From: a virus
Lineage: Duplodnaviria; Heunggongvirae; Uroviricota; Caudoviricetes
Direction: 5' to 3' (one strand)
Length of the DNA stretch: 64,000 nucleotides
IMG/VR virus record: IMGVR_UViG_2778261035_000005
Part shown: positions 10,780 through 64,000 of the stretch, one piece after another
How positions within the stretch are numbered: position 1 is the first letter of the stretch
Layout: each line of letters opens with the position of its first letter
Notes under the pieces: generated by a model
Told to the model about the DNA's origin: nothing
The model's database searches: none
Seen by the model: the letters and a program-made list of their open reading frames with translations, nothing else
Position numbers and translations under genes: made by a program

Positions 10780-12339
10780 CTAATCTCGTTTCAGAACTCC
10801 AAAATCGAATGCTCCATCAATAGGCAATACACCTTCTGCAAAGCCAGGTGTGGTGTCGATGATGTGTTTTCGCTCATAAGAGTGAGACAACAGGTATTTG
10901 TTGCTAATGTCAATGAAATCAGTGATAAAACACACGTTTGCCTGATTTTTTTTGGCTCGTAAGCCACGACCGACACGCTGTCTCATTTCAACTTCTGCTT
11001 TCCCACCACCAGCAAGAATGACCGCACCAACGCTTGGCACATCAACACCAACATCCAGAATAGTCGAGCCTATTAAAACATCTATTTCACCAGACGCTAA
11101 ACTATTCAGCTTTGCTTGCCTTGTCGTCTGGTTAGATTCCCCATAGATGAAATCAACTTTAAGACCTGACTCCTTCATCATCTCCATCAGGATTTGCCCG
11201 TGGCGTTTAAGACGAACCAGAGTCATGCAGTTGAGTGAATGTTGCTTATAAAGCAATGCCTCGCGCACAATGGCCTCGTTACGTCCCAAATTATACACGA
11301 TCCCCAACTGATAAGCCTTTTGGTAGGCGGTGCTCATACCAACTCTAAAATTGAGGTGTTTGTTGGCAAGTTCGGCCTTGATTCTGGCCTCGTCTGGCTT
11401 GTAGGCAACTTTATGATAAAGGAAGTACGGCTTTGCCAGAATGCCTCGATCAATCAGGTACTTTTCTGTGACTTTAATTTCAATTCGCCCGGCCACCGCC
11501 ATCAGGCGCATGTTGGCTTCCGTCGAATCCTTCATGAACGGCGTGGCTGTAAGCGCCAGACGATAGTCTGCGTTCACACATAATCTGGCGATGTCATAGA
11601 AATTTGAGCCTGAAGACTCATGCGCCTCTTCCAGAATAAGAAGAGAGACACTTGAAAGGAAGCGTTTCACCAACTCCCGACGTTTGAGGTGGTAGCTTTT
11701 CTTATCTGGTGTTGCATCGCGTGGTGGTTCTTCGAGGAAACTTGCAAGAGTTTGAACTGTAGCGACGTTGATATGTCGTGATACCTGGAACTCACCCGAG
11801 CCAATGACTCCAACCTTTTGGTCTTTTAACCACGGTTCGCCATTTTCGGCGCGGTAGTCGATGGATCTCTGGAAGTTTTCGGCCATTTGAAACATCAGAA
11901 CAGAGCGGGTTGTTAAAAATAATGTCATTCGACCGATACGTGCAGCTGCTTTGCAGGCAACGTTAGATTTCCCGCCACCAGTAGCGATCTGCGCAATCAT
12001 CATTCCCTCTCGAACCAGTGTTTCCACAGTCTGATCCTGATACGCATAATCAGGATTGTATGGGAATGGGTTAACCGCAGGATTTGGTTTACCAAGCGCC
12101 GGGGCTTTGTCTTTGCGGATATGAACACATTTGATGCCCGCCTTGTTCAAGTTCGCCGCTACAGGCTTGGCAAAGCCAGCAGGGAACGAGTTTCTACTCC
12201 AGTTGAACATCGTGCTTGTGCCCTTCCAGTCGCCAGTCTCGACTTCGTAGCTCAACATCTGTTGCACCATTTGCTTTACCTTGTCATCTGCGCCAGAAAT
12301 AAGCGCATTAACTGCGTTAGATACAATCCGAACAGTCAT
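10780..12339 (-). CDS. superfamily 2 DEAD/DEAH-type helicase
   Basis: Walker A ATGGGKS, DEAH-like LILEEAHE, motif III LTATP, motif VI QRVGRGLR. Confidence 0.8.
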   Translation of the reverse strand: MTVRIVSNAVNALISGADDKVKQMVQQMLSYEVETGDWKGTSTMFNWSRNSFPAGFAKPVAANLNKAGIKCVHIRKDKAPALGKPNPAVNPFPYNPDYAYQDQTVETLVREGMMIAQIATGGGKSNVACKAAARIGRMTLFLTTRSVLMFQMAENFQRSIDYRAENGEPWLKDQKVGVIGSGEFQVSRHINVATVQTLASFLEEPPRDATPDKKSYHLKRRELVKRFLSSVSLLILEEAHESSGSNFYDIARLCVNADYRLALTATPFMKDSTEANMRLMAVAGRIEIKVTEKYLIDRGILAKPYFLYHKVAYKPDEARIKAELANKHLNFRVGMSTAYQKAYQLGIVYNLGRNEAIVREALLYKQHSLNCMTLVRLKRHGQILMEMMKESGLKVDFIYGESNQTTRQAKLNSLASGEIDVLIGSTILDVGVDVPSVGAVILAGGGKAEVEMRQRVGRGLRAKKNQANVCFITDFIDISNKYLLSHSYERKHIIDTTPGFAEGVLPIDGAFDFGVLKRD

Positions 12340-12382: not shown

Positions 12383-12404
12383 TAATAAGTAAGTGATTAC
12401 CTAG
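12383..12404. promoter_or_regulatory. TAAGTA-family motif in divergent promoter region
   Basis: taataagtaagtgattacctag between helicase (-) and ParB-like (+) genes. Confidence 0.4.
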
Positions 12405-13102
12405 TGGATTGTAGCAATAAAATGGATGTAAAAATCACGATTTTGCAGGTTGATGTTGCCAACCTTCGCCCGAATACCTGGAACACCAATTCGGTTGGTG
12501 CGCAGAATTTTGAAAAACTGAAAGGTTCTATCGAAAAATTGGGCTTTTTTAAGCCAATTTTGGCTCGTGAACTTGAAGATGGATTTTTTGAAATCCTCGG
12601 CGGCGAACATCGCTGGCGTGCTGCTATTGAGCAAGGAATTTCAACGGTTCCGGTGCTTTCTGTGGGCAAAATTAGCGATGTCGTAGCTAAACAGATGTCA
12701 CTGGTGGACAACGAGCGATACGGTGAAGACGACCAAATCGCATTGCAACGCTTCATTGAAGAAATTCAGTCAGAACTTGACTATCAACTGTCTGAAATCG
12801 CCCCGTATGACGACGAAATCTCGATGGTTTTAGCAAAAGAGGCGGCAATCGACCTTGAAGCACTGGAGGCGTTGTCTCGTGGTAGTGATGAGCCTGTCGA
12901 TACCGACAAACGAGAGAAAACCGAACGTGTGGGTGCGGAACATCAGACCATGCGCTTCAAAGTAACTTTCGATGCGTCAGATCGTGTTGCAGAAACCATA
13001 AAAAACATCATCAAAGAGCAGGCTATTAACACCGGTAATGAAATGGAGAACGCTGGTGAGGCTCTGGTGTGGCTGGTCGACTACTACAAGGAGCGTATGT
13101 AA
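12404..13102 (+). CDS. ParB/Srx-like nuclease-domain protein
   Basis: ParB N-terminal domain signature ...FEILGGEHRWRAA...; GTG 12404 or ATG 12422. Confidence 0.7.
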   Translation: MDCSNKMDVKITILQVDVANLRPNTWNTNSVGAQNFEKLKGSIEKLGFFKPILARELEDGFFEILGGEHRWRAAIEQGISTVPVLSVGKISDVVAKQMSLVDNERYGEDDQIALQRFIEEIQSELDYQLSEIAPYDDEISMVLAKEAAIDLEALEALSRGSDEPVDTDKREKTERVGAEHQTMRFKVTFDASDRVAETIKNIIKEQAINTGNEMENAGEALVWLVDYYKERM

Positions 13103-13770
13103 TGACCAAAAAGTTTGAAATCGTATATCGCGACCCGGCAGATCTTATTCCCTATGAGATGAATGCCAAAAAGCATGATGAACAGCAGATCCGAGATCTA
13201 GCCGCAGCCATTAAAAAGCGCGGATTTGACCAGCCAATTACGGTCGATAAGAACGACGTAATTATTACTGGCCACGGCCGCCGTGAGGCTGCAATTTTTG
13301 CTGGACTTGAGCGCGTACCGGTTATTGTTCGCGATGATCTCAGTGATGACGAGGTTCGTGCGAAGCGCCTTGAAGATAACCGACTTGCCAGCATTGATTA
13401 CGATGCAATTAAGCTACAGAAAGAGCTTGAGTCGCTTGTTCTGGACGATATCGAGGTTTTCGGCTTTGAAGAGCGTGAGTTGAATGTTCTCGTTGGCAGC
13501 ATGACAGAAGAAATGGACACCGACTCGCTAGTTATCGATCTTGGCGAAGAAACTAAACGACAGAAGGATGAACACACCGAGATCAGTCGTGAAGTTGCAG
13601 CGGAAGAAGTACGTGTTGTCGACGTATTGGGCTTTAAAACGCTTCCTGCTGGCTCTGCCATTGTTGTTGGTGATTTGCTTGCCCACATGGAAGAAATGAC
13701 GGGAGAAAGCGGGGTAGACGCATTTGTGGCATATGCGGAGAAGATCTCTTCCGGGGAGATGGCTGCATGA
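13102..13770 (+). CDS. second ParB/Srx-like domain protein
   Basis: ...VIITGHGRREAAIFAG... ParB-like motif; start overlaps previous stop (taATGa). Confidence 0.7.
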   Translation: MTKKFEIVYRDPADLIPYEMNAKKHDEQQIRDLAAAIKKRGFDQPITVDKNDVIITGHGRREAAIFAGLERVPVIVRDDLSDDEVRAKRLEDNRLASIDYDAIKLQKELESLVLDDIEVFGFEERELNVLVGSMTEEMDTDSLVIDLGEETKRQKDEHTEISREVAAEEVRVVDVLGFKTLPAGSAIVVGDLLAHMEEMTGESGVDAFVAYAEKISSGEMAA

Positions 13771-14432
13771 GCAAATACATCATCAACGTATCGTTTCAGA
13801 CACGCGTAAATAAAACCACGCGCACGTTGGAAATCGCTGAGTCGTTCGGGCTTGGCCTGGACGAAAAAGAGTGGACGCTTTACGACAATCTGGAGCTGGA
13901 AGTGAAGCAGGGCGATGTGGTGTACATCACCGGCCAATCCGGTTCCGGCAAATCCGTTGTGCTGCGCGAGTTGCAACGACAGATGAAGGATGAAGGGCTG
14001 TCTGTAGCCTCCATCGATGATTTTACCTTCGATAATGAGGTTAACGTCATCGATCAGTTGGGCAAAACGACCAGCGATGCGCTTGGGTTGTTATCTATGG
14101 CTGGTCTGAACGATGCATATCTGTTTGTTCGCAAGCCTTCTGAAATGTCAGACGGTCAGAAATATCGTCTCAAGATTGCCAAACTGATTGAGTCAGGCGC
14201 TAAAGTGTGGGCTGCTGACGAGTTCGGCGCTGTTCTCGACCGTGTAACCGCTCAGGTTGTGGCGTCTAACCTCCAGCGTGCCGCTCGAAAGGTTGGTGCG
14301 ACGGTAATGGTGGCGACGACTCACGAAGACCTGAAGAACGCGCTGCGCCCGGATATGCAGATCACCAAGCACTACAAAGAACGCGTGAAGGTGGAATATC
14401 ACAATGGTAGTCATGATGAGGTCCATTCATGA
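13767..14432 (+). CDS. ABC-type P-loop ATPase
   Basis: Walker A GQSGSGKS, ABC-signature-like MSDGQKYR, Walker B VWAADEF, H-loop ATTHE; overlaps neighbours by 4 nt. Confidence 0.7.
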   Translation: MSKYIINVSFQTRVNKTTRTLEIAESFGLGLDEKEWTLYDNLELEVKQGDVVYITGQSGSGKSVVLRELQRQMKDEGLSVASIDDFTFDNEVNVIDQLGKTTSDALGLLSMAGLNDAYLFVRKPSEMSDGQKYRLKIAKLIESGAKVWAADEFGAVLDRVTAQVVASNLQRAARKVGATVMVATTHEDLKNALRPDMQITKHYKERVKVEYHNGSHDEVHS

Positions 14433-15319
14433 CGGACATCATCATTAAACGCTACCGCCCTGAAGAGTTTCCGCGTCATCTGGACTTTCTGGAGCGAATG
14501 ACTGTTACAAAGGGAACTGTAGAGGACTGGCACGCTCTTAAGTCGCTTCACTACAAAACAGACGGCAAACCTTTCGCGCCAACTTACTATCGCTGCGAAC
14601 TTGATGACCGTCTGGTGGGCGTCGTGGTTATGGCTTACCCGAAACTACTGTTGGCACCTCGCCACCGCATGTTTCCTAAGTTGAAACCAACCACTAATAC
14701 CACCGTGGCTAACCAGTACTGGGGTCGGTACGTGAATAACAACTTTGCGGTGATCAGTCGCTCAGTTGTGGATACTCAGTATCGTGGCGTAGGCGTCTCT
14801 TATCGAATGATTAACCTGGTTAGCAGGATGCATGACCGGCCAATCATTGAGATCCAGTCCTCGATGAGCAAATACAATCCCTTCGCCATGAAAGCAGGGT
14901 TTAAGTTCATCCGCCCTGAGCGACCGAAGAGCTATGAAAGTGCACTGCGTGTATTCCAGCGCCATTTCCGTTCCGACCCGGGTGATAACGAGGCGATCGT
15001 CAAAGAGTTGTTCGCAATGAGCGAGTCTCGTCGTCGCCGTGCACTGCGTGATCTGGTGGCGGACTACCACAAGAACAGTTCCCTGGCAAAAGCTGGGCGG
15101 AATCGTGGCACGACGATTCAGGACATTGCCGACAGTCTGGTGGACGAGGCCAGCATTGTGAAGCTGCTCAAGGACATTCACAACCTGAGCTTTACGTCTC
15201 CGTTGTATGGTGTGTACCGAAACCCTGACTTTGGCCGTCGACTGCCTGACACGCTGCCACTGCTGGCATTCGACAAACAACCTTTGGATAAACCGTTAGA
15301 AATTGCTTTACCGGCATAA
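14429..15319 (+). CDS. GNAT-fold-like protein (296 aa)
   Basis: Acetyl-CoA-binding-like motif VVDTQYRGVGVSYRMINLV; weak assignment. Confidence 0.45.
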   Translation: MTDIIIKRYRPEEFPRHLDFLERMTVTKGTVEDWHALKSLHYKTDGKPFAPTYYRCELDDRLVGVVVMAYPKLLLAPRHRMFPKLKPTTNTTVANQYWGRYVNNNFAVISRSVVDTQYRGVGVSYRMINLVSRMHDRPIIEIQSSMSKYNPFAMKAGFKFIRPERPKSYESALRVFQRHFRSDPGDNEAIVKELFAMSESRRRRALRDLVADYHKNSSLAKAGRNRGTTIQDIADSLVDEASIVKLLKDIHNLSFTSPLYGVYRNPDFGRRLPDTLPLLAFDKQPLDKPLEIALPA

Positions 15320-15328
15320 GGATTTGCC

Positions 15329-15595
15329 ATGACGTTAACCGATAAACAAAAGGACATCATCAAAACGCTCAATCTCGGTTATGAGCGAGGTCATCTACTT
15401 GACCTGGACGAATTGCTTGAAGTTTTGCCGTACAAGACAACCAAGCAAAGTATCCAGTTCTCAATTCGCGCTCTGATAAAAAAGGGGCTGGTGGAGAAAG
15501 GGCATACGCGCCAACGCAGTGACAATCGCTATCACCGCCGGACTCTTGGGTTAACCACTTTAGGTCGAGCCAAAGCGAAGTTACTGGTGATGTAA
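15329..15595 (+). CDS. small basic protein, possible winged-helix DNA binder
   Basis: 88-aa ORF; helix-rich basic segment SIRALIKKGLVEKG. Confidence 0.4.
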   Translation: MTLTDKQKDIIKTLNLGYERGHLLDLDELLEVLPYKTTKQSIQFSIRALIKKGLVEKGHTRQRSDNRYHRRTLGLTTLGRAKAKLLVM

Positions 15596-15626
15596 TCGGT
15601 CTGGGAGCTTATTTAAAGACCTGCAT

Positions 15627-15675
15627 CTGTATATATAAATAATAAGTAACTTATTAAATATATACGGAAGCAGGC
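15627..15675. repeat. ~50-bp AT-rich palindromic element, copy 1
   Basis: ctgtatatataaataataagtaacttattaaatatatacggaagcagg; near-identical copy at 47203-47252. Confidence 0.75.
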
Positions 15676-15710
15676 TTCGTAAGACATGCCAGACCTAATT
15701 AAACACCCCA

Positions 15711-15750
15711 GAAAACAAGTTGGTTAGCAGATGCAGTAAACAAGTTGTTT
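15711..15750 (+). promoter_or_regulatory. operator palindrome plus half-site (GAAAACAAGTTGG ... AAACAAGTTGTTT)
   Basis: Same motif family as left-arm cassettes. Confidence 0.5.
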
Positions 15751-15751
15751 T

Positions 15752-15780
15752 AGAGCGCATGGACGCGCTCTGTGTGTTTT
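15752..15780 (+). terminator. terminator-like hairpin in leader of packaging operon
   Basis: agagcgc-atggac-gcgctct followed by gtgtgtttt, 12 nt before TerS start. Confidence 0.45.
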
Positions 15781-15790
15781 AGAGGGATCT

Positions 15791-16423
15791 ATGACGGTCG
15801 AAAAAGACGAGGTAAAAACTCGCCTGACACCAGCGGAGTGGGCCGAAGCTGAAGCCAAATGGACGTCAGGCGAATATACACTCTCAAAGCTGGAGGAAGA
15901 GTACGGCATTCGTCGTGAAACACTCTCCAGACATTTCAAAAAGCGAGGATTAGAGAAAGGCGCGGACTCTGTTGGGAAGATGGTTCGTGAGTCTCTTAAA
16001 TCTGACGCAGAGCTTCGCGCTAAAGCCCGTGCGGAAAAGATAGAAGAACGTCGTACACGTTATGACGGCTGGGCGTATGCGTTGGGGCAGATGGTGATGG
16101 TCGAAGTCACTACGGCCAAACGTGAGGGTAAGCCTTTAGGGGCGATTGAGGATTCTCTCAAGAGCTTACAGAGAGCCAGTAATACCCTTGCAAAATGCTT
16201 TGAAGTTTCGTCCAAAGCATTGGGCATGGATCATGCGGAAAATGACGAGGAAGAAATTCCGAACCTGGTATTTGGTGAGCTTACGCCTTCCCAGGTGGCG
16301 AAATTACGTCAGGAAGACGACGAGCCTGAAATCATCGATGACGAATTGCTTGAGACGTTGGAAGAAGAAGCTCTAAGCGAATTTGATGCGACAGATGATG
16401 GAAGTGAAGGGGAGGACGAATAA
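15791..16423 (+). CDS. terminase small subunit candidate
   Basis: Position immediately 5' of TerL with ATGA overlap; HTH-like N-terminus, acidic C-terminus. Confidence 0.5.
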   Translation: MTVEKDEVKTRLTPAEWAEAEAKWTSGEYTLSKLEEEYGIRRETLSRHFKKRGLEKGADSVGKMVRESLKSDAELRAKARAEKIEERRTRYDGWAYALGQMVMVEVTTAKREGKPLGAIEDSLKSLQRASNTLAKCFEVSSKALGMDHAENDEEEIPNLVFGELTPSQVAKLRQEDDEPEIIDDELLETLEEEALSEFDATDDGSEGEDE

Positions 16424-17679
16424 TGGCAATCCCGTCCTCGCTCAGTCTTGTGCAACTGCATTCTGGACAGATGAAAGTCTTCCAGTCTCCGCATCGATTT
16501 AAAGTTGTTTGTGCTGGTCGACGCTGGGGAAAATCCCGGTTGTCGATCTCCACTATTATTCGTGCGGCGGCAAAGGAAAAAAAGCAAAGGGTCTGGTATG
16601 TCGCTCCTACATACCAGATGGCTCGCCAGATTTTGTGGGACGATCTACAGGAAGTTCTGCCTCGTAAGTGGGTTAGGAAAAAGAACGACACCACGATGAC
16701 AATCGTGTTGAAGAACGGTTCGGAGATCGCCCTCAAAGGTGCTGATAAGCCTGACACTCTGCGCGGCGTAGCGTTGCATTTTGTAGTGCTTGATGAATTT
16801 CAGGATATGAAGGCTGACACCTGGTACAAGGTGTTACGACCTACTCTTTCATCGACACGCGGCGGTGCACTGATCATTGGTACGCCAAAAGGCTTCTCGG
16901 AATTTCACAAACTGTGGACTATAGGCCAGAACGTAGAGCTGCAAAGAAAGGGACAGTGGAAGAGCTGGCAGTTTGTAACTGCCGATTCTCCGTTTGTACC
17001 TACGGCGGAAATTGAAGCTGCTAAGAACGATATGGACCCGAAATCGTTCGCTCAGGAGTACCTGGCGAGCTTTGAGAACATGTCCGGGCGCGTTTACTAC
17101 CCGTTCGATCGTAACGTGCATGTAAAACCGCTTCAGTTCAACCCTCGGTTGCCTATATGGGTAGGGCAGGACTTCAACATTGACCCGATGTCTTCAGTAA
17201 TTTTGCAACCTCAGCCAAATGGTGAGCTATGGGCAATTGATGAATTGGTGCTCTTTTCCTCTAACACGGCAGAGGTTTGTGATGAGCTTGAGAGACGCTT
17301 CTGGCGCTGGAAATCACAGATAACGGTATTTCCAGATCCGGCAGGTGCTTATCGCCAACATGCTCGCGGGGAGTCTGACGTCGACATATTCAAAGAGAAG
17401 GGATTCTTACGTGTCGATTATTCGAAAAAGCACCCGCCAATTGCGGATCGTGTTAATGCTGTTAACCGAATGCTGATGACCGCATCTGGAGATATCCGGC
17501 TGTATATCGATCCGAAGTGCAAGCATTTGATTGATTCACTGGAAAAAGTCATCTACAAGCCTGGAACACGAGATATGGATAAGACAGGTGGCATTGAGCA
17601 TAGTGCAGACGCATTGGGCTATCCAGTACATCGTAGGTATCCAGTCAAAAACCGTGTTATTCTTGGTGGTTCTCGATAG
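16423..17679 (+). CDS. terminase large subunit
   Basis: Walker A CAGRRWGKS, Walker B HFVVLDEF, C-terminal nuclease-like region. Confidence 0.85.
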   Translation: MAIPSSLSLVQLHSGQMKVFQSPHRFKVVCAGRRWGKSRLSISTIIRAAAKEKKQRVWYVAPTYQMARQILWDDLQEVLPRKWVRKKNDTTMTIVLKNGSEIALKGADKPDTLRGVALHFVVLDEFQDMKADTWYKVLRPTLSSTRGGALIIGTPKGFSEFHKLWTIGQNVELQRKGQWKSWQFVTADSPFVPTAEIEAAKNDMDPKSFAQEYLASFENMSGRVYYPFDRNVHVKPLQFNPRLPIWVGQDFNIDPMSSVILQPQPNGELWAIDELVLFSSNTAEVCDELERRFWRWKSQITVFPDPAGAYRQHARGESDVDIFKEKGFLRVDYSKKHPPIADRVNAVNRMLMTASGDIRLYIDPKCKHLIDSLEKVIYKPGTRDMDKTGGIEHSADALGYPVHRRYPVKNRVILGGSR

Positions 17680-56888: not shown

Positions 56889-56963
56889 GATGGTGTAGCT
56901 CAGCGGTAGAGCAGTTGGCTGTTAACCAACTGGTCGGTGGTTCGAATCCACCCACCATCGCCA
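56889..56963 (+). tRNA. tRNA-Asn (anticodon GTT)
   Basis: Cloverleaf read by hand: acceptor gatggtg/caccatc, anticodon loop ctGTTaa, T-loop ggtggttcgaatccacc, 3' CCA. Confidence 0.85.
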
Positions 56964-56965
56964 AT

Positions 56966-57041
56966 GCCGGTTTAGCTCAGTTGGTAGAGCACCTGCCTTG
57001 TAAGCAGGATGTCAGCGGTTCGAATCCGTTAACCGGCACCA
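56966..57041 (+). tRNA. tRNA-Thr (anticodon TGT)
   Basis: acceptor gccggtt/aaccggc, anticodon stem cctgc/gcagg, loop ctTGTaa, T-loop ttcgaat, 3' CCA. Confidence 0.85.
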
Positions 57042-57254
57042 ACACAACAGGAAAGAGCATTGAGAACCGCCGAGACTGCCCTGTTTGAAGCGTAAGTCCG
57101 TGCAAACGTCATACAGTGCTCTTTTCGTTGTGGTGAATGCGGCTAAGCGCACGCGGGGAAATGGTTATATTGATCCTTTGTGATGACTATTGGCTCCGTC
57201 CACGGTGGATAACCAGCCAAAGGACACCGGGAAGCACCCGGCACCACAACAATT

Positions 57255-57341
57255 GGAGAGTAGGGAGCATGGTGCTCAAGCGGTCTTGAAAACCGTCCCA
57301 TTGCGCAAGCGATGATGGTTCGATTCCATTACTCTCCGCCA
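57255..57341 (+). tRNA. tRNA-Ser-like (anticodon TGA, long variable arm), D-arm atypical
   Basis: acceptor ggagagt/actctcc, anticodon loop ctTGAaa, variable-arm hairpin cattgc-gcaa-gcgatg, T-loop ggttcgattcc, 3' CCA. Confidence 0.6.
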
Positions 57342-62379: not shown

Positions 62380-64000
62380 ATGTCCAAAAAACGTTCCATC
62401 AAAGAGGTTCAGGACTTCCGTGACAGTGTAAAACGAGTAGTCGCTCTCCTTTCAGGTAAAAACATCCCTGTTGCAGAACGAGGGGACGACGCTTATGTAC
62501 GCTATAACGATGATGGAGAGCCAATTCTCGTAAACATCCCATCAATCCCAGATAACGCAACACCGGCATTGATGAATGCAGTACGCGGATTTCTAGATCA
62601 TGAAGTTGCTCACATTTTGTTTACCGATATTCATGTGTCCAACAAAATGAGAGAAAAAGGACACGTCCCTTCCTGGTCACTATGGAATGCCTTAGAAGAC
62701 GTGTTCATCGAGCGAAAAATGGGGCAGGTCTTTAACGGAACAAGACGTAATCTGATGGCAACTCAGCGCCTGATAATCGAAAAAGTCTTTAAACCAAAGG
62801 CTTCAGAGGCTATTACTTATTGTGGCAAAGATCAGCGCGCGCTTTTTCTAAACTTCTTTCTCTGTCCGGTTGTAAGAGCCTGGGATGGCCAAGCACCGTT
62901 CGTAGATTTCATGGATGAATACTGGCCTGTCATTGAGAAACCAATTTCATTATTAAAAGAACATGGTATCGATGTGGCCGTGCGTAACATGTCTTGCACC
63001 GAGGATTGTTTAAAGGTGGCTGCGACCATAGCTAAGATCCTCAAAGACACAGAAAGTGAAAGCAAAGGTAAGGAGTCAGCTCCGGGAAAAACTCCCGATC
63101 CTTCAGACGCTGACCAAGCGGATTCCTCTGGAGAAAGTAATGAAGACAATGAAGATCACAAGACACATGAGATGCTAGATAACCACATATCTATAGATGA
63201 TGAGTCACACGGTAAGTACATACATGATGATAACGATAGTGATGATTCAGATAATTCTGAATCATCAGAAACAATATTCGATGATACAAAAAATGATAAA
63301 GAGGTATTAGATTCTGATACTTCCAATAGCGCGACGACAGAAGCAACTACCTCGGATCACGAAAAAAGAAAAACGGCAGAAGACGGCTCTTCAGACATTC
63401 CCACTCCGTCCAAAATGAGTCTGGAAGAGGCTTTAGAGGAGCTTGATAGCATGGAAGATGAAGTCGGAGGCATGACAGAAGATGCACTATCCGAAACGAT
63501 TAAAAGCGAGTTAACAGAAAGCTCGAAAAGCGAATACAGGCCATACAATCGCTCATACGACTTCATCGGTTCGATTGATCAGGCAGAAGCCCATATCAAA
63601 CGGCTTATTAAAACATTCTCCGATATTGATTTAGGTGGATATCCAATCAGCCGTTATCGCATCGTTCCTGAAGGCAACCAACTCTTCGACAAATATATTG
63701 AAAAGCATCTTTCGTCAGGTGTTTCGTCGACGCTGGCAAAAGACCTGGAGCGTGCAATTGCAAGCAGAAACAGAGTTCAGTTTATACCGGGCCAGCGTCG
63801 GGGGCGCATTCATGGTTCTAGTATCTACAGATTAGCAATGAATGATGATCGCGTGTTTCGTAAAAAAGAAGAATCTAAGGCCGTTAACGCCTGTGTTCAA
63901 CAAGTGATTGATTTATCAGGTTCAATGAGCGGCGAAACGATTAAACTGGCTCTTGCAAGTGCATATACCATCGCCGATGCGCTTGATCGAATAAATGTTC
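62380..64000 (+). CDS. CobT-like protein with acidic linker and C-terminal vWA domain (3' end beyond window)
   Basis: ATG 62380 after palindrome taatttgttttc and RBS aaggat; D/E/S-rich region; MIDAS motif DLSGSM near window end; not in ORF track because no stop in window. Confidence 0.65.
   Translation, partial: MSKKRSIKEVQDFRDSVKRVVALLSGKNIPVAERGDDAYVRYNDDGEPILVNIPSIPDNATPALMNAVRGFLDHEVAHILFTDIHVSNKMREKGHVPSWSLWNALEDVFIERKMGQVFNGTRRNLMATQRLIIEKVFKPKASEAITYCGKDQRALFLNFFLCPVVRAWDGQAPFVDFMDEYWPVIEKPISLLKEHGIDVAVRNMSCTEDCLKVAATIAKILKDTESESKGKESAPGKTPDPSDADQADSSGESNEDNEDHKTHEMLDNHISIDDESHGKYIHDDNDSDDSDNSESSETIFDDTKNDKEVLDSDTSNSATTEATTSDHEKRKTAEDGSSDIPTPSKMSLEEALEELDSMEDEVGGMTEDALSETIKSELTESSKSEYRPYNRSYDFIGSIDQAEAHIKRLIKTFSDIDLGGYPISRYRIVPEGNQLFDKYIEKHLSSGVSSTLAKDLERAIASRNRVQFIPGQRRGRIHGSSIYRLAMNDDRVFRKKEESKAVNACVQQVIDLSGSMSGETIKLALASAYTIADALDRINV

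Follow-up and report, generated by a model that had tools for sequence, protein, structure and literature searches.

What function is served by two ParB-like proteins, an ABC-type ATPase and a GNAT-like protein that are encoded as one compact cassette upstream of a phage terminase? The question is raised by the IMG/VR virus record IMGVR_UViG_2778261035_000005 (Duplodnaviria; Heunggongvirae; Uroviricota; Caudoviricetes), a stretch of 64,000 nucleotides (nt) that was analysed in full, is referred to below as the window, and represents an SSU5-type Escherichia coli phage-plasmid. The original prediction, made from the sequence alone, placed the four genes at positions 12404–15319, described them as a tight, translationally coupled unit with overlaps of 1–4 nt, did not recognize their combination as a described system, and suggested a DNA-marking, anti-defence or packaging-associated module. 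All four open reading frames (ORFs) were recovered on the plus strand, together with the lengths of 221 and 296 amino acids (aa) given for the ATPase and the GNAT-like protein, the motifs of the two ParB-like proteins (ParB-A and ParB-B) and the GNAT-like loop (Table 1). The junctions read TAATG between the ParB genes (1-nt overlap) and ATGA at each of the two that follow (4 nt).

The combination itself, on the other hand, is not undescribed, as the ATPase and GNAT genes are a split form of the known COG2401/MK0520-type family, and a passage of Iyer et al. 2021 (PMC7824862), with reference to Iyer et al. 2013, predicts that a GNAT coupled to an ABC ATPase makes an uncharacterised acyl modification of a DNA base. 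Homology indicates that the cassette belongs to this family of predicted DNA modifiers as a split variant with a duplicated ParB, and that it represents, in the SSU5 lineage, a viral module of wide distribution with an ABC-ATPase–GNAT enzyme and a ParB-fold partner (ParB-B) at its core. The SSU5 lineage has two additions to this core, namely another ParB paralogue of more canonical type (ParB-A) and a small protein that is probably a winged helix. The function that we favour, albeit tentatively, is late, nucleoside triphosphate (NTP)-driven, ParB-assisted acylation of phage DNA.

Split and fused forms of the ABC-ATPase–GNAT family

A profile of the 296-aa family matched 881 cluster representatives, many of them 440–900 aa long, over a region of approximately residues 200–480, and the N-terminal parts of these longer proteins were ABC_tran domains. 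Both window proteins were found by phmmer to match the halves of single fused ORFs, the ATPase at 1e-41 to 1e-61 and the GNAT at 1e-10 to 1e-18. The fused proteins also carry the N-terminal motif of the ATPase (R-T-L-x-I/V-A-E-x-F-G-L-G) and the C-terminal motif of the GNAT (Y-x-W-x-N-P), and the order of their domains is the order of the genes in the window. As judged by sequence comparison, the two genes encode one ABC-ATPase–GNAT enzyme in split form; the annotation of Escherichia phage Cyrano reads 'MK0520 protein, ABC-type ATPase fused to a predicted acetyltransferase domain'.

Fused ABC-ATPase–GNAT proteins occur in well over 1,000 viral contigs, and their gene neighbourhoods were counted at the 80 best IMG/VR loci each for a long and a short form. 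The short form (approximately 360–400 aa; at least 595 IMG/VR contigs and unrelated cultured phages) is immediately preceded by a ParB-like gene of the same orientation at 71 of the 80 loci when jackhmmer is seeded with ParB-B, while plain phmmer gave 46 matches (best 6e-28) and Pfam PF02195 was matched in 38 of 77. The first large ORF downstream of the short form encodes a large terminase (TerL) in at least about half of 72 loci, with matches to Terminase_6N (27), Terminase_3 (14), GpA_ATPase (7) and TerL_ATPase (5) that may overlap on one protein, and the gene in between often encodes a small terminase or a helix-turn-helix (HTH) protein. This arrangement is seen in Gordonia phage Mariokart (gp1 ParB, gp2 ABC-GNAT, gp3 formyltransferase-like, gp4 terminase) and Leptospira phage LE4 (gp14 ParB, gp15 ABC-GNAT, then TerL). 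Pairs of ParB and ABC-GNAT are also encoded by Jace (gp85–gp86) and Arthrobacter phage EastWest (gp74–gp75), and in a Planctomycetota prophage remnant the fused gene is followed by ParB and then by a split TerL. The long form (approximately 450–560 aa) is found mostly in Bathyarchaeia genomes and also on at least 421 IMG/VR contigs; its gene lies directly downstream of TerL (identified by Pfam), on the same strand, at 49 of the 80 loci and after a tail protein at 11 more.

Further features were observed around and within the fused genes. The long fused gene is located at a viral contig end, or less than 300 nt from it, in 30 of the 80 loci (L039–L118) and tends to terminate the viral region, as does the cassette in the deposited SSU5 and Cyrano genomes. 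Some short fused genes are followed by a gene for aspartate 1-decarboxylase, an enzyme of beta-alanine/coenzyme A (CoA) precursor supply (Jace gp87, L200 5092–5517; 4 of 66 IMG/VR loci), and one by a gene for a formyltransferase-like protein (Mariokart gp3, L199 1799–2446); such neighbours may possibly hint at the acyl donor or at a further modification step. Among the fused proteins P0165, P0179, P0204 and P0155, some have an ABC domain interrupted by an intein with a LAGLIDADG endonuclease, and other fused proteins are predicted as fusions to a family-B DNA polymerase or a TFIIB repeat. These architectures could be real or could be gene-call artefacts of archaeal viral contigs.

Among cultured phages, the split form is found only in siphoviruses of approximately 105–120 kb, namely the SSU5-like phages, the Pseudomonas nickie-like phages, the Rhizobium RHEph10 group, Stenotrophomonas phages BUCTxx99 and ANB28, and Xanthomonas phage JGB6. 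It is also carried by large contigs (0.3 and 3.3 Mb) of other bacteria, where the loci are probably integrated prophages. A single order was observed in seven of seven split loci (L001–L007), with a divergent UvsW-like helicase gene followed by genes for ParB, ParB, ABC, GNAT, a small protein, a small terminase (TerS)-like protein, TerL and the portal, and with 0–3 unrelated small genes between the cassette members. The tight coupling seen in the window is consequently not a property of the whole family, as one to three extra small genes separate the members in relatives. The ATPase/GNAT junction is an insertion hot spot in these relatives (L002 7994–8248; L004 6961–7999; L005 5646–5981; L006 5043–5898), the inserts consisting of one to three unrelated small genes, including those for Phage_gp49_66, RyR-domain and DUF2829 proteins, and the two halves of the enzyme must therefore assemble in trans.

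The GNAT and ATPase proteins

The 296-aa protein is a GNAT, as proposed from its acyl-CoA loop, although it gave no direct match in Pfam (including the GNAT models), and none in NCBIfam or PADLOC. Short fused relatives match Pfam Acetyltransf_1 (1e-8, 3e-9) and are linked to the 296-aa family by hhalign (95%, E 2e-8). The loop itself, R119-G-V-G122-V-S124, conforms to the R/Q-x-x-G-x-G/A pattern of the GNAT acyl-CoA loop and sits, in the predicted model of the protein, between strand 106–114 and helix 116–134. The label 'ABC transporter ATP-binding subunit' (phrog_886, GenBank) is wrong, the protein being the GNAT half; several homologues bear the JGI name 'ABC-type ATPase with predicted acetyltransferase domain', and RefSeq names the gene 'hypothetical protein'.

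A collection clustered at 90% contains 341 homologues of the protein, nearly all of 285–310 aa. Among 37 homologues with 41–83% identity, 37 positions are invariant, including R119, G122, H41-Y42-K43, R78-H79, R111, D115, E141, S144 and S147; the long (H245, Y246) and the short (H228, Y229) fused families also have an HY pair that does not vary. Across the three subfamilies, the GNAT part is consistently basic (median isoelectric point (pI) 9.4–10.7, compared with approximately 6 for the ABC part). The enzyme is probably active, because the CoA-loop residues R119 and G122 do not vary, nor do many polar residues, and the basic GNAT part found in all subfamilies suggests a polyanion as the probable substrate. 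In the predicted model, residues 165–255 are helical and precede the final strand (259–264), and this region is likely to be an insertion ahead of the last strand of the fold.

The ATPase is soluble and carries the Walker A, signature, Walker B and H-loop motifs of ABC proteins (Table 1). An ABC transporter, as implied by the PHROG and GenBank name that in fact belongs to the GNAT half, was rejected, as none of the seven lineage loci encodes a membrane protein within or next to the cassette, and also because the ATPase of the relatives is fused to a GNAT.

The ParB-like proteins

The ParB and ABC domain assignments were borne out by hidden Markov model (HMM) searches; PF00005 was matched by the ATPase, and PF02195 by ParB-A (3.3e-13, 49.9 bits) and ParB-B (1.3e-8, 35.2 bits), both above the cut-off of 26.3 bits. 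ParB-B (phrog_930, 1e-112) matches the ParB domain of phage ParB–DNA-methyltransferase fusions (phrog_498, 1.2e-31; PADLOC MTase_II, 2.8e-17) and belongs to a GHxR-type clade whose members partner, or are fused to, DNA-modifying enzymes (DNA methyltransferases). It is also nearest to the ParB encoded directly upstream of the short fused genes (46 of 77 by phmmer, 71 of 77 by jackhmmer). On this evidence ParB-B is the counterpart of the near-universal ParB partner, with ParB-A as an additional paralogue in the SSU5 lineage. The ParB-B gene starts at ATG 13102, GTG 13069 being the start of the mechanical ORF only.

ParB-A (phrog_723, 2e-79; pI 4.55) looks more canonical, lies nearer to chromosomal ParB, Spo0J and Noc, and aligns to Spo0J/ParB/Noc structures (E 3e-9 to 1e-5). 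It may start at ATG 12422, as annotated in Cyrano, instead of GTG 12404. Aligned with Spo0J, ParB-A retains the Glu of GERRxRAA and two of its three Arg, while box I QPR is replaced by N-T-N and box III reads DNER; the alignment extends into the helical region at low confidence. The AF2 model of ParB-A (pLDDT 38) was too poor for use and does not define the C-terminal domains of the ParBs; the homologues available for structure prediction were all close (85–100% identity). ParB-B keeps the GxxR arginine of box II, has His in place of the catalytic Glu and EDNR at box III, and does not conserve box I QPR. The box II arginine and the box III Asn of the NTP pocket are thus present in both proteins, and the balance of kept and lost box residues makes NTP binding plausible for each and hydrolysis uncertain.

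Proposed function and alternatives

Acylation of DNA is favoured because the GNAT is basic, because its partner is a ParB of the methylase-fused clade, and because viruses with otherwise unrelated terminases encode the enzyme alongside their late and packaging genes. According to this proposal, the cassette would be expressed with the late genes, and phage DNA would be acylated before or during packaging. The ParB proteins would bind NTP, load on DNA and then recruit or activate the enzyme, a step suggested by the precedents of ParB–DNA methylase fusions, ParB176 with a thymine dioxygenase, and DpdB with DpdA. The ABC domains would form an ATP sandwich dimer that places two basic GNAT subunits on DNA and may power base access or turnover, while the GNAT would move an acyl group to the exocyclic amine of a base. 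Acetyl- or acyl-CoA is the presumed donor because the CoA loop is intact, although an aminoacyl-tRNA, as used by Mu Mom, is also possible. The acylated DNA would be protected against host nucleases. With respect to the precedents, ParB176 activates a phage T-dioxygenase on double-stranded DNA (dsDNA) (PMC13229309), DpdB is a ParB-like ATPase assisting DpdA (PMC12839542), and ParB–acetyltransferase fusions that bind GTP are known (PMC12704722).

Several observations weigh against this proposal. The literature holds no report of a modified base for SSU5-like, nickie-like or RHEph10-like phages, and a search for experimental work on COG2401, on SSU5 DNA modification or on ABC ATPase, GNAT and ParB together found none. 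The GNAT fold alone gives no substrate, a point stressed by the authors of the work on Mom, and the 296-aa family has no significant sequence relation to Mom (no PF25680 match; hhalign 0.6%). The long fused form lacks a ParB within 8 kb in all but 3 of the 80 loci, so that ParB is not obligatory for the enzyme, and both ParB-A and ParB-B depart from the CTPase consensus. Moreover, the ATPase resembles transporter-type nucleotide-binding domains and is unlike the DNA-clamping SMC/Rad50 type, the gene order kept within the SSU5/nickie/RHEph10 lineage could reflect mere vertical inheritance, and a virion-delivered protein would be just as compatible with a position beside structural genes. Late DNA acylation is advanced with somewhat less than even confidence, since there is no report of a modified base and the substrate of a GNAT cannot be named from its fold. 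The broader idea is more speculative still: the module may represent a new class of post-replicative hypermodification, in which an NTP-gated, ParB-loaded, ATP-driven acyl (acetyl or aminoacyl) transferase writes an N-acyl base in step with packaging, common to phages of at least three to four terminase types, archaeal tailed viruses and SSU5-type phage-plasmids.

A basic GNAT part is compatible with RNA as well as with DNA. The enzyme might acetylate a base or an aminoacyl group of tRNA or rRNA in an ATP-dependent manner, similarly to TmcA or the TacT/AtaT toxins, and so reprogramme translation or evade anticodon nucleases. TmcA sets a precedent, being an ATPase plus GNAT by which an aromatic nucleobase amine is acetylated. 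Ribosomes and tRNA are acted on by soluble ABC domains of transporter-like type (ABC-F, ABCE1), and the matches included Lsa(A), an ABC-F protein of ribosomal protection. However, RNA modification offers no precedent for ParB-fold partners or for a position next to a terminase, the ATPase of TmcA is of a helicase-like type that shares no homology with ABC domains, and no tRNA genes lie near the cassette within the window (the nearest are at 56889–57341), which makes an RNA target improbable. An unlikely, but less remote, alternative is that the ABC-GNAT enzyme is a late protein acetyltransferase tethered to DNA by ParB. Its targets might be, for example, nucleoid-associated proteins, which would be stripped from the DNA ahead of packaging, a component of the terminase, portal or capsid, or a host factor acting in defence or transcription. 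A GNAT part that is strongly basic in all subfamilies and a constant ParB partner of the DNA-methylase-fused clade would be unexpected for a pure protein modifier, and no specific likeness to the RimI-like clade was shown.

The location of the cassette, adjoining a cos-like palindrome and the TerS–TerL operon, has also been considered as a sign of a non-catalytic or accessory packaging factor, in which the ParBs would organize cos/pac, the ABC ATPase would assemble or regulate the terminase, and the GNAT would be regulatory. ABC-GNAT genes indeed lie beside TerL of several families in bacterial and archaeal viruses, sometimes overlapping it, but a separate conserved TerS candidate exists, many tailed phages package without such genes, Nonlabens phage P12024S has the gene in its replication module instead, and the strictly conserved GNAT catalytic-site residues point to chemistry over scaffolding. 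We therefore give a packaging factor only a small chance of being correct. The position beside structural genes, at the chromosome end, would suit virion-delivered or early anti-defence effectors too, with the ParBs as NTPases or nickases and the acyltransferase injected to disarm immunity; ParB domains of phage polyvalent/late-gene proteins, for example P1 DdrB, have been proposed to be packaged NTP-regulated DNases, and the ParB domain of a ParB-methylase nicks DNA. This possibility is rather doubtful, as both ParBs are small, acidic and stand-alone, no encapsidation signal was found, neither PADLOC nor PHROG gave an anti-defence label, and no DdrB-like ParB similarity was seen, though no comparison was aimed at that clade. 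Finally, two ParB-family genes on an element kept as a plasmid, one of which (ParB-A) is named 'ParB/RepB/Spo0J family partition protein' in RefSeq, might suggest the partition system of the phage-plasmid. This reading was rejected as highly improbable: no ParA is adjacent and the neighbouring ATPase is of the ABC type, the two proteins score 43.3 and 43.1 bits against TIGR00180 parB_part (cut-off 58.45), the cassette is conserved in other phage genera (nickie, the RHEph10 group, Stenotrophomonas) and in probable prophages on large contigs, and Cyrano, a related phage, encodes a RepA of its own as well as a MinD/ParA-like protein at another place in its genome.

Organization and occurrence of the locus

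The 2,916-bp cassette region is 99.5% identical to that of Escherichia phage Cyrano, 98.8% identical to E. coli phage-plasmid records and 85.7% identical to that of Salmonella phage SSU5. The cassette was found in 247 of 5,426 complete E. coli genomes (approximately 4.6%), in all cases on plasmids, mostly of approximately 110 kb, and in none on the chromosome. A scan for promoters and terminators within the cassette revealed sites no more frequent than in shuffled sequence. The features of the locus are listed in Table 1.

Table 1. Genes, motifs and other features of the cassette and its surroundings (window coordinates)
Feature	Position	Strand	Details
UvsW-like DEAD/ResIII helicase	10780–12339	-	Pfam ResIII 1.1e-14, DEAD 2.1e-14, Helicase_C 4.3e-13
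ParB-A, ParB/Srx N-terminal-domain protein	12404–13102	+	232 aa from GTG 12404, 226 aa from ATG 12422
ParB-A box II motif GGEHRWRAA	12599–12625	+	Counterpart of GERRxRAA; alignment to B. subtilis and T. thermophilus Spo0J
ParB-B, ParB/Srx N-terminal-domain protein	13102–13770	+	222 aa, pI 4.53
ParB-B box II motif GHGRREAA	13270–13293	+	Alignment to Spo0J
Soluble ABC-type ATPase	13767–14432	+	221 aa; PF00005 5.8e-13; phrog_293 6e-59
Walker A GQSGSGKS	13932–13955	+	Motif reading in ATPase
ABC signature MSDGQKYR (LSGGQ-like MSDGQ)	14145–14168	+	Motif reading in ATPase
Walker B VWAADEF	14205–14225	+	Motif reading in ATPase
H-loop	14316–14330	+	Motif reading in ATPase
GNAT-fold acyltransferase	14429–15319	+	296 aa, pI 9.8; probable helical insertion of ~90 residues
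LHYK motif	14546–14557	+	H41, Y42, K43 invariant; homologue alignment
Acyl-CoA pyrophosphate-binding loop QYRGVGVS (R119-x-x-G122-x-S124)	14777–14800	+	R119, G122 invariant; position 124 is S, A or G
Basic protein, fifth operon gene	15329–15595	+	88 aa, pI 10.2; phrog_900 1.9e-45; weak Sta1/Lrs14 HTH matches below cut-off
Structured spacer	15596–15790		195 bp; AT-rich palindrome centred near 15648, two direct repeats, hairpin
TerS candidate	15791–16423	+	210 aa; N-terminal HTH-like region, acidic tail; phrog_867 2.2e-100, 'DNA binding domain'
Large terminase (TerL)	16423–17679	+	Terminase_6N 3.1e-9, Terminase_3 2e-6, Terminase_6C 2.2e-4, phrog_10250 6e-64

The cassette was originally placed upstream of the terminase; it does precede TerL, with the gene for an 88-aa protein, a 195-bp spacer and the gene for a 210-aa TerS candidate lying between them. 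The 88-aa gene begins 9 nt past the GNAT gene, and its homologues directly follow the GNAT gene in six of the seven lineage loci (L001–L005, L007). Its product is probably a winged helix, as suggested by the weak HTH matches; a PDB sequence search returned nothing for this protein or for the TerS candidate. The spacer contains a palindrome with arms at 15620–15636 and 15658–15674 and inner arms at 15632–15647 and 15649–15664, two 17-nt direct repeats CAGAAAACAAGTTGGTT at 15709 and 15734, the also repeated TGTTTTAGAG, and a terminator-like hairpin at 15751–15772, and it is probably a cos/pac region with candidate terminase-binding repeats. The deposited linear end of Cyrano corresponds to window position 15657, within the palindrome, 62 bp past the small gene, as is also the case in the SSU5 record. 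As the Cyrano and SSU5 records end at the palindrome, the cassette is the last operon before the probable cos site, and the circular form places it in one stretch with the TerS candidate and TerL. The stop codon of the TerS candidate overlaps the TerL start (TAATG), and its position is conserved in L003–L007; having no Pfam or PDB match, the candidate is assigned from its position. It nevertheless occupies the place of a small terminase, and none of the four cassette proteins matched a terminase model.

Two more distant features were noted. A cluster of three tRNA genes (Asn-GTT, Thr-TGT, Ser-TGA) is located on the plus strand, far from the cassette, at the position given above for the nearest tRNA genes. 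In Cyrano (OV696614), a gene at 62432–63076 (L285 14433–15077, outside the window) is annotated 'ASCH RNA-binding domain', and its tblastn homologues were confined to SSU5-like and nickie-like phages, which without exception have the cassette. This lead was dropped, since no Pfam model matched, the gene lies outside the window, and the co-occurrence may mirror shared ancestry.

Novelty and significance

The genes of the cassette have been public ever since SSU5 was sequenced. What is new here is the demonstration that the ATPase and GNAT genes are the split counterpart of the fused family, the quantification of its linkage to ParB and to terminase genes across bacterial and archaeal viruses, and the placement of the cassette by a probable cos site. 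The general idea of a DNA-marking, anti-defence or packaging-associated module fits this evidence, and that early interpretation is supported in part.

To our knowledge, Mu Mom is the sole characterised GNAT among phage DNA modification chemistries. If late DNA acylation were confirmed, ATP- and ParB-dependent acyl transfer would join the short list of these chemistries, and an explanation would be at hand for genes that occur together on well over a thousand viral contigs, those of archaeal viruses among them. It would also provide a function for genes of clinically common phage-plasmids of E. coli, Klebsiella and Salmonella, resistance genes being carried by some of these elements, and the linkage to several terminase families would bear on how modification is coordinated with packaging. 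SSU5 grows on Salmonella LT2, and the recorded host of PhiR41_1 is E. coli K-12 MG1655; these elements are tractable, and a prediction that has been standing since 2013 is therefore directly testable.

Comparison with known systems

The closest relatives of the cassette are the COG2401/MK0520-type ABC-ATPase–GNAT proteins, to which both halves are homologous, in the same order, with a ParB neighbour and in a viral, terminase-proximal context. In contrast to these proteins, the enzyme is here split into two genes, between which one to three genes are inserted in relatives, and the GNAT, with a putative helical insertion of approximately 90 residues, has diverged too far to be matched by the Pfam GNAT models. 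Two ParB paralogues are present instead of one, together with a conserved gene for a small, probably winged-helix protein; a ParB neighbour accompanies 71 of the 80 short-form loci and is mostly absent at long-form loci.

Likeness to ParABS is limited to the fold of the ParB N-terminal domain and the box II arginine motif, whereas ParA is lacking, no parS was recognised (no search aimed at it was made), TIGR00180 scores stay below the cut-off, and the cassette is found in other phage genera and on probable chromosomal contigs. Membership of a named defence system was likewise rejected, as PADLOC returned only generic matches (the MTase_II ParB domain and the mad3/mad8/PtuA ATPase P-loops) and none for the GNAT.

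Mom reportedly is a GNAT that modifies DNA adenine late in infection, and its inserted helical element is said to bind DNA. Mu Mom (PF25680) is a tRNA-dependent DNA adenine aminoacyl-transferase that uses Gly-tRNA and has no CoA loop, whereas the 296-aa family keeps R-x-x-G-x-(G/A/S), and Mom is a lone homodimer without ATPase or ParB, both of which the cassette has. The essential helical insertion of Mom lies between beta-6 and beta-7, and its active site comprises HY and Arg. The 296-aa protein shows fold similarity to Mom, and its model has a helical region (165–255) before the last predicted strand; any correspondence of residues would be tentative, as the only stretch that hhalign pairs with Mom is the LHYK region, around Mom H58-Y59, and the match is not significant. 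Membership of the Mom family was rejected at the sequence level, with no PF25680 match and hhalign probabilities of 0.2% for Mu Mom and 0.6% for a profile built from 27 Mom sequences. A gene annotated as methionyl-tRNA synthetase is present approximately 12 kb upstream of the cassette in Cyrano (OV696614 90996–93029); the donor of Mom is a charged tRNA.

TmcA/NAT10, which forms N4-acetylcytidine in RNA, follows the same logic of an NTPase with a GNAT that acetylates an exocyclic nucleobase amine using acetyl-CoA, yet its ATPase is helicase-like and not of the ABC type, its substrate is RNA and it has no ParB, so that the comparison is an analogy. In the ParB–DNA methyltransferase fusions (phrog_498; Bacillus cereus Bce_0392 type), a ParB fold is coupled to a DNA-modifying unit in a phage or prophage context, as in the cassette, but the unit there is a fused S-adenosylmethionine-dependent methylase, as opposed to the separately encoded, putative ATP-dependent acyltransferase found here. 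In 5mYOX176/ParB176 and DpdA/DpdB the chemistry also differs, being oxidation or transglycosylation as opposed to acyl transfer, and no ABC ATPase is involved. Nevertheless, the role that we propose for the ParB proteins of the cassette would be analogous to that seen in these two systems, in which a stand-alone ParB-fold protein without an obvious DNA-binding domain aids an enzyme that modifies bases in dsDNA.

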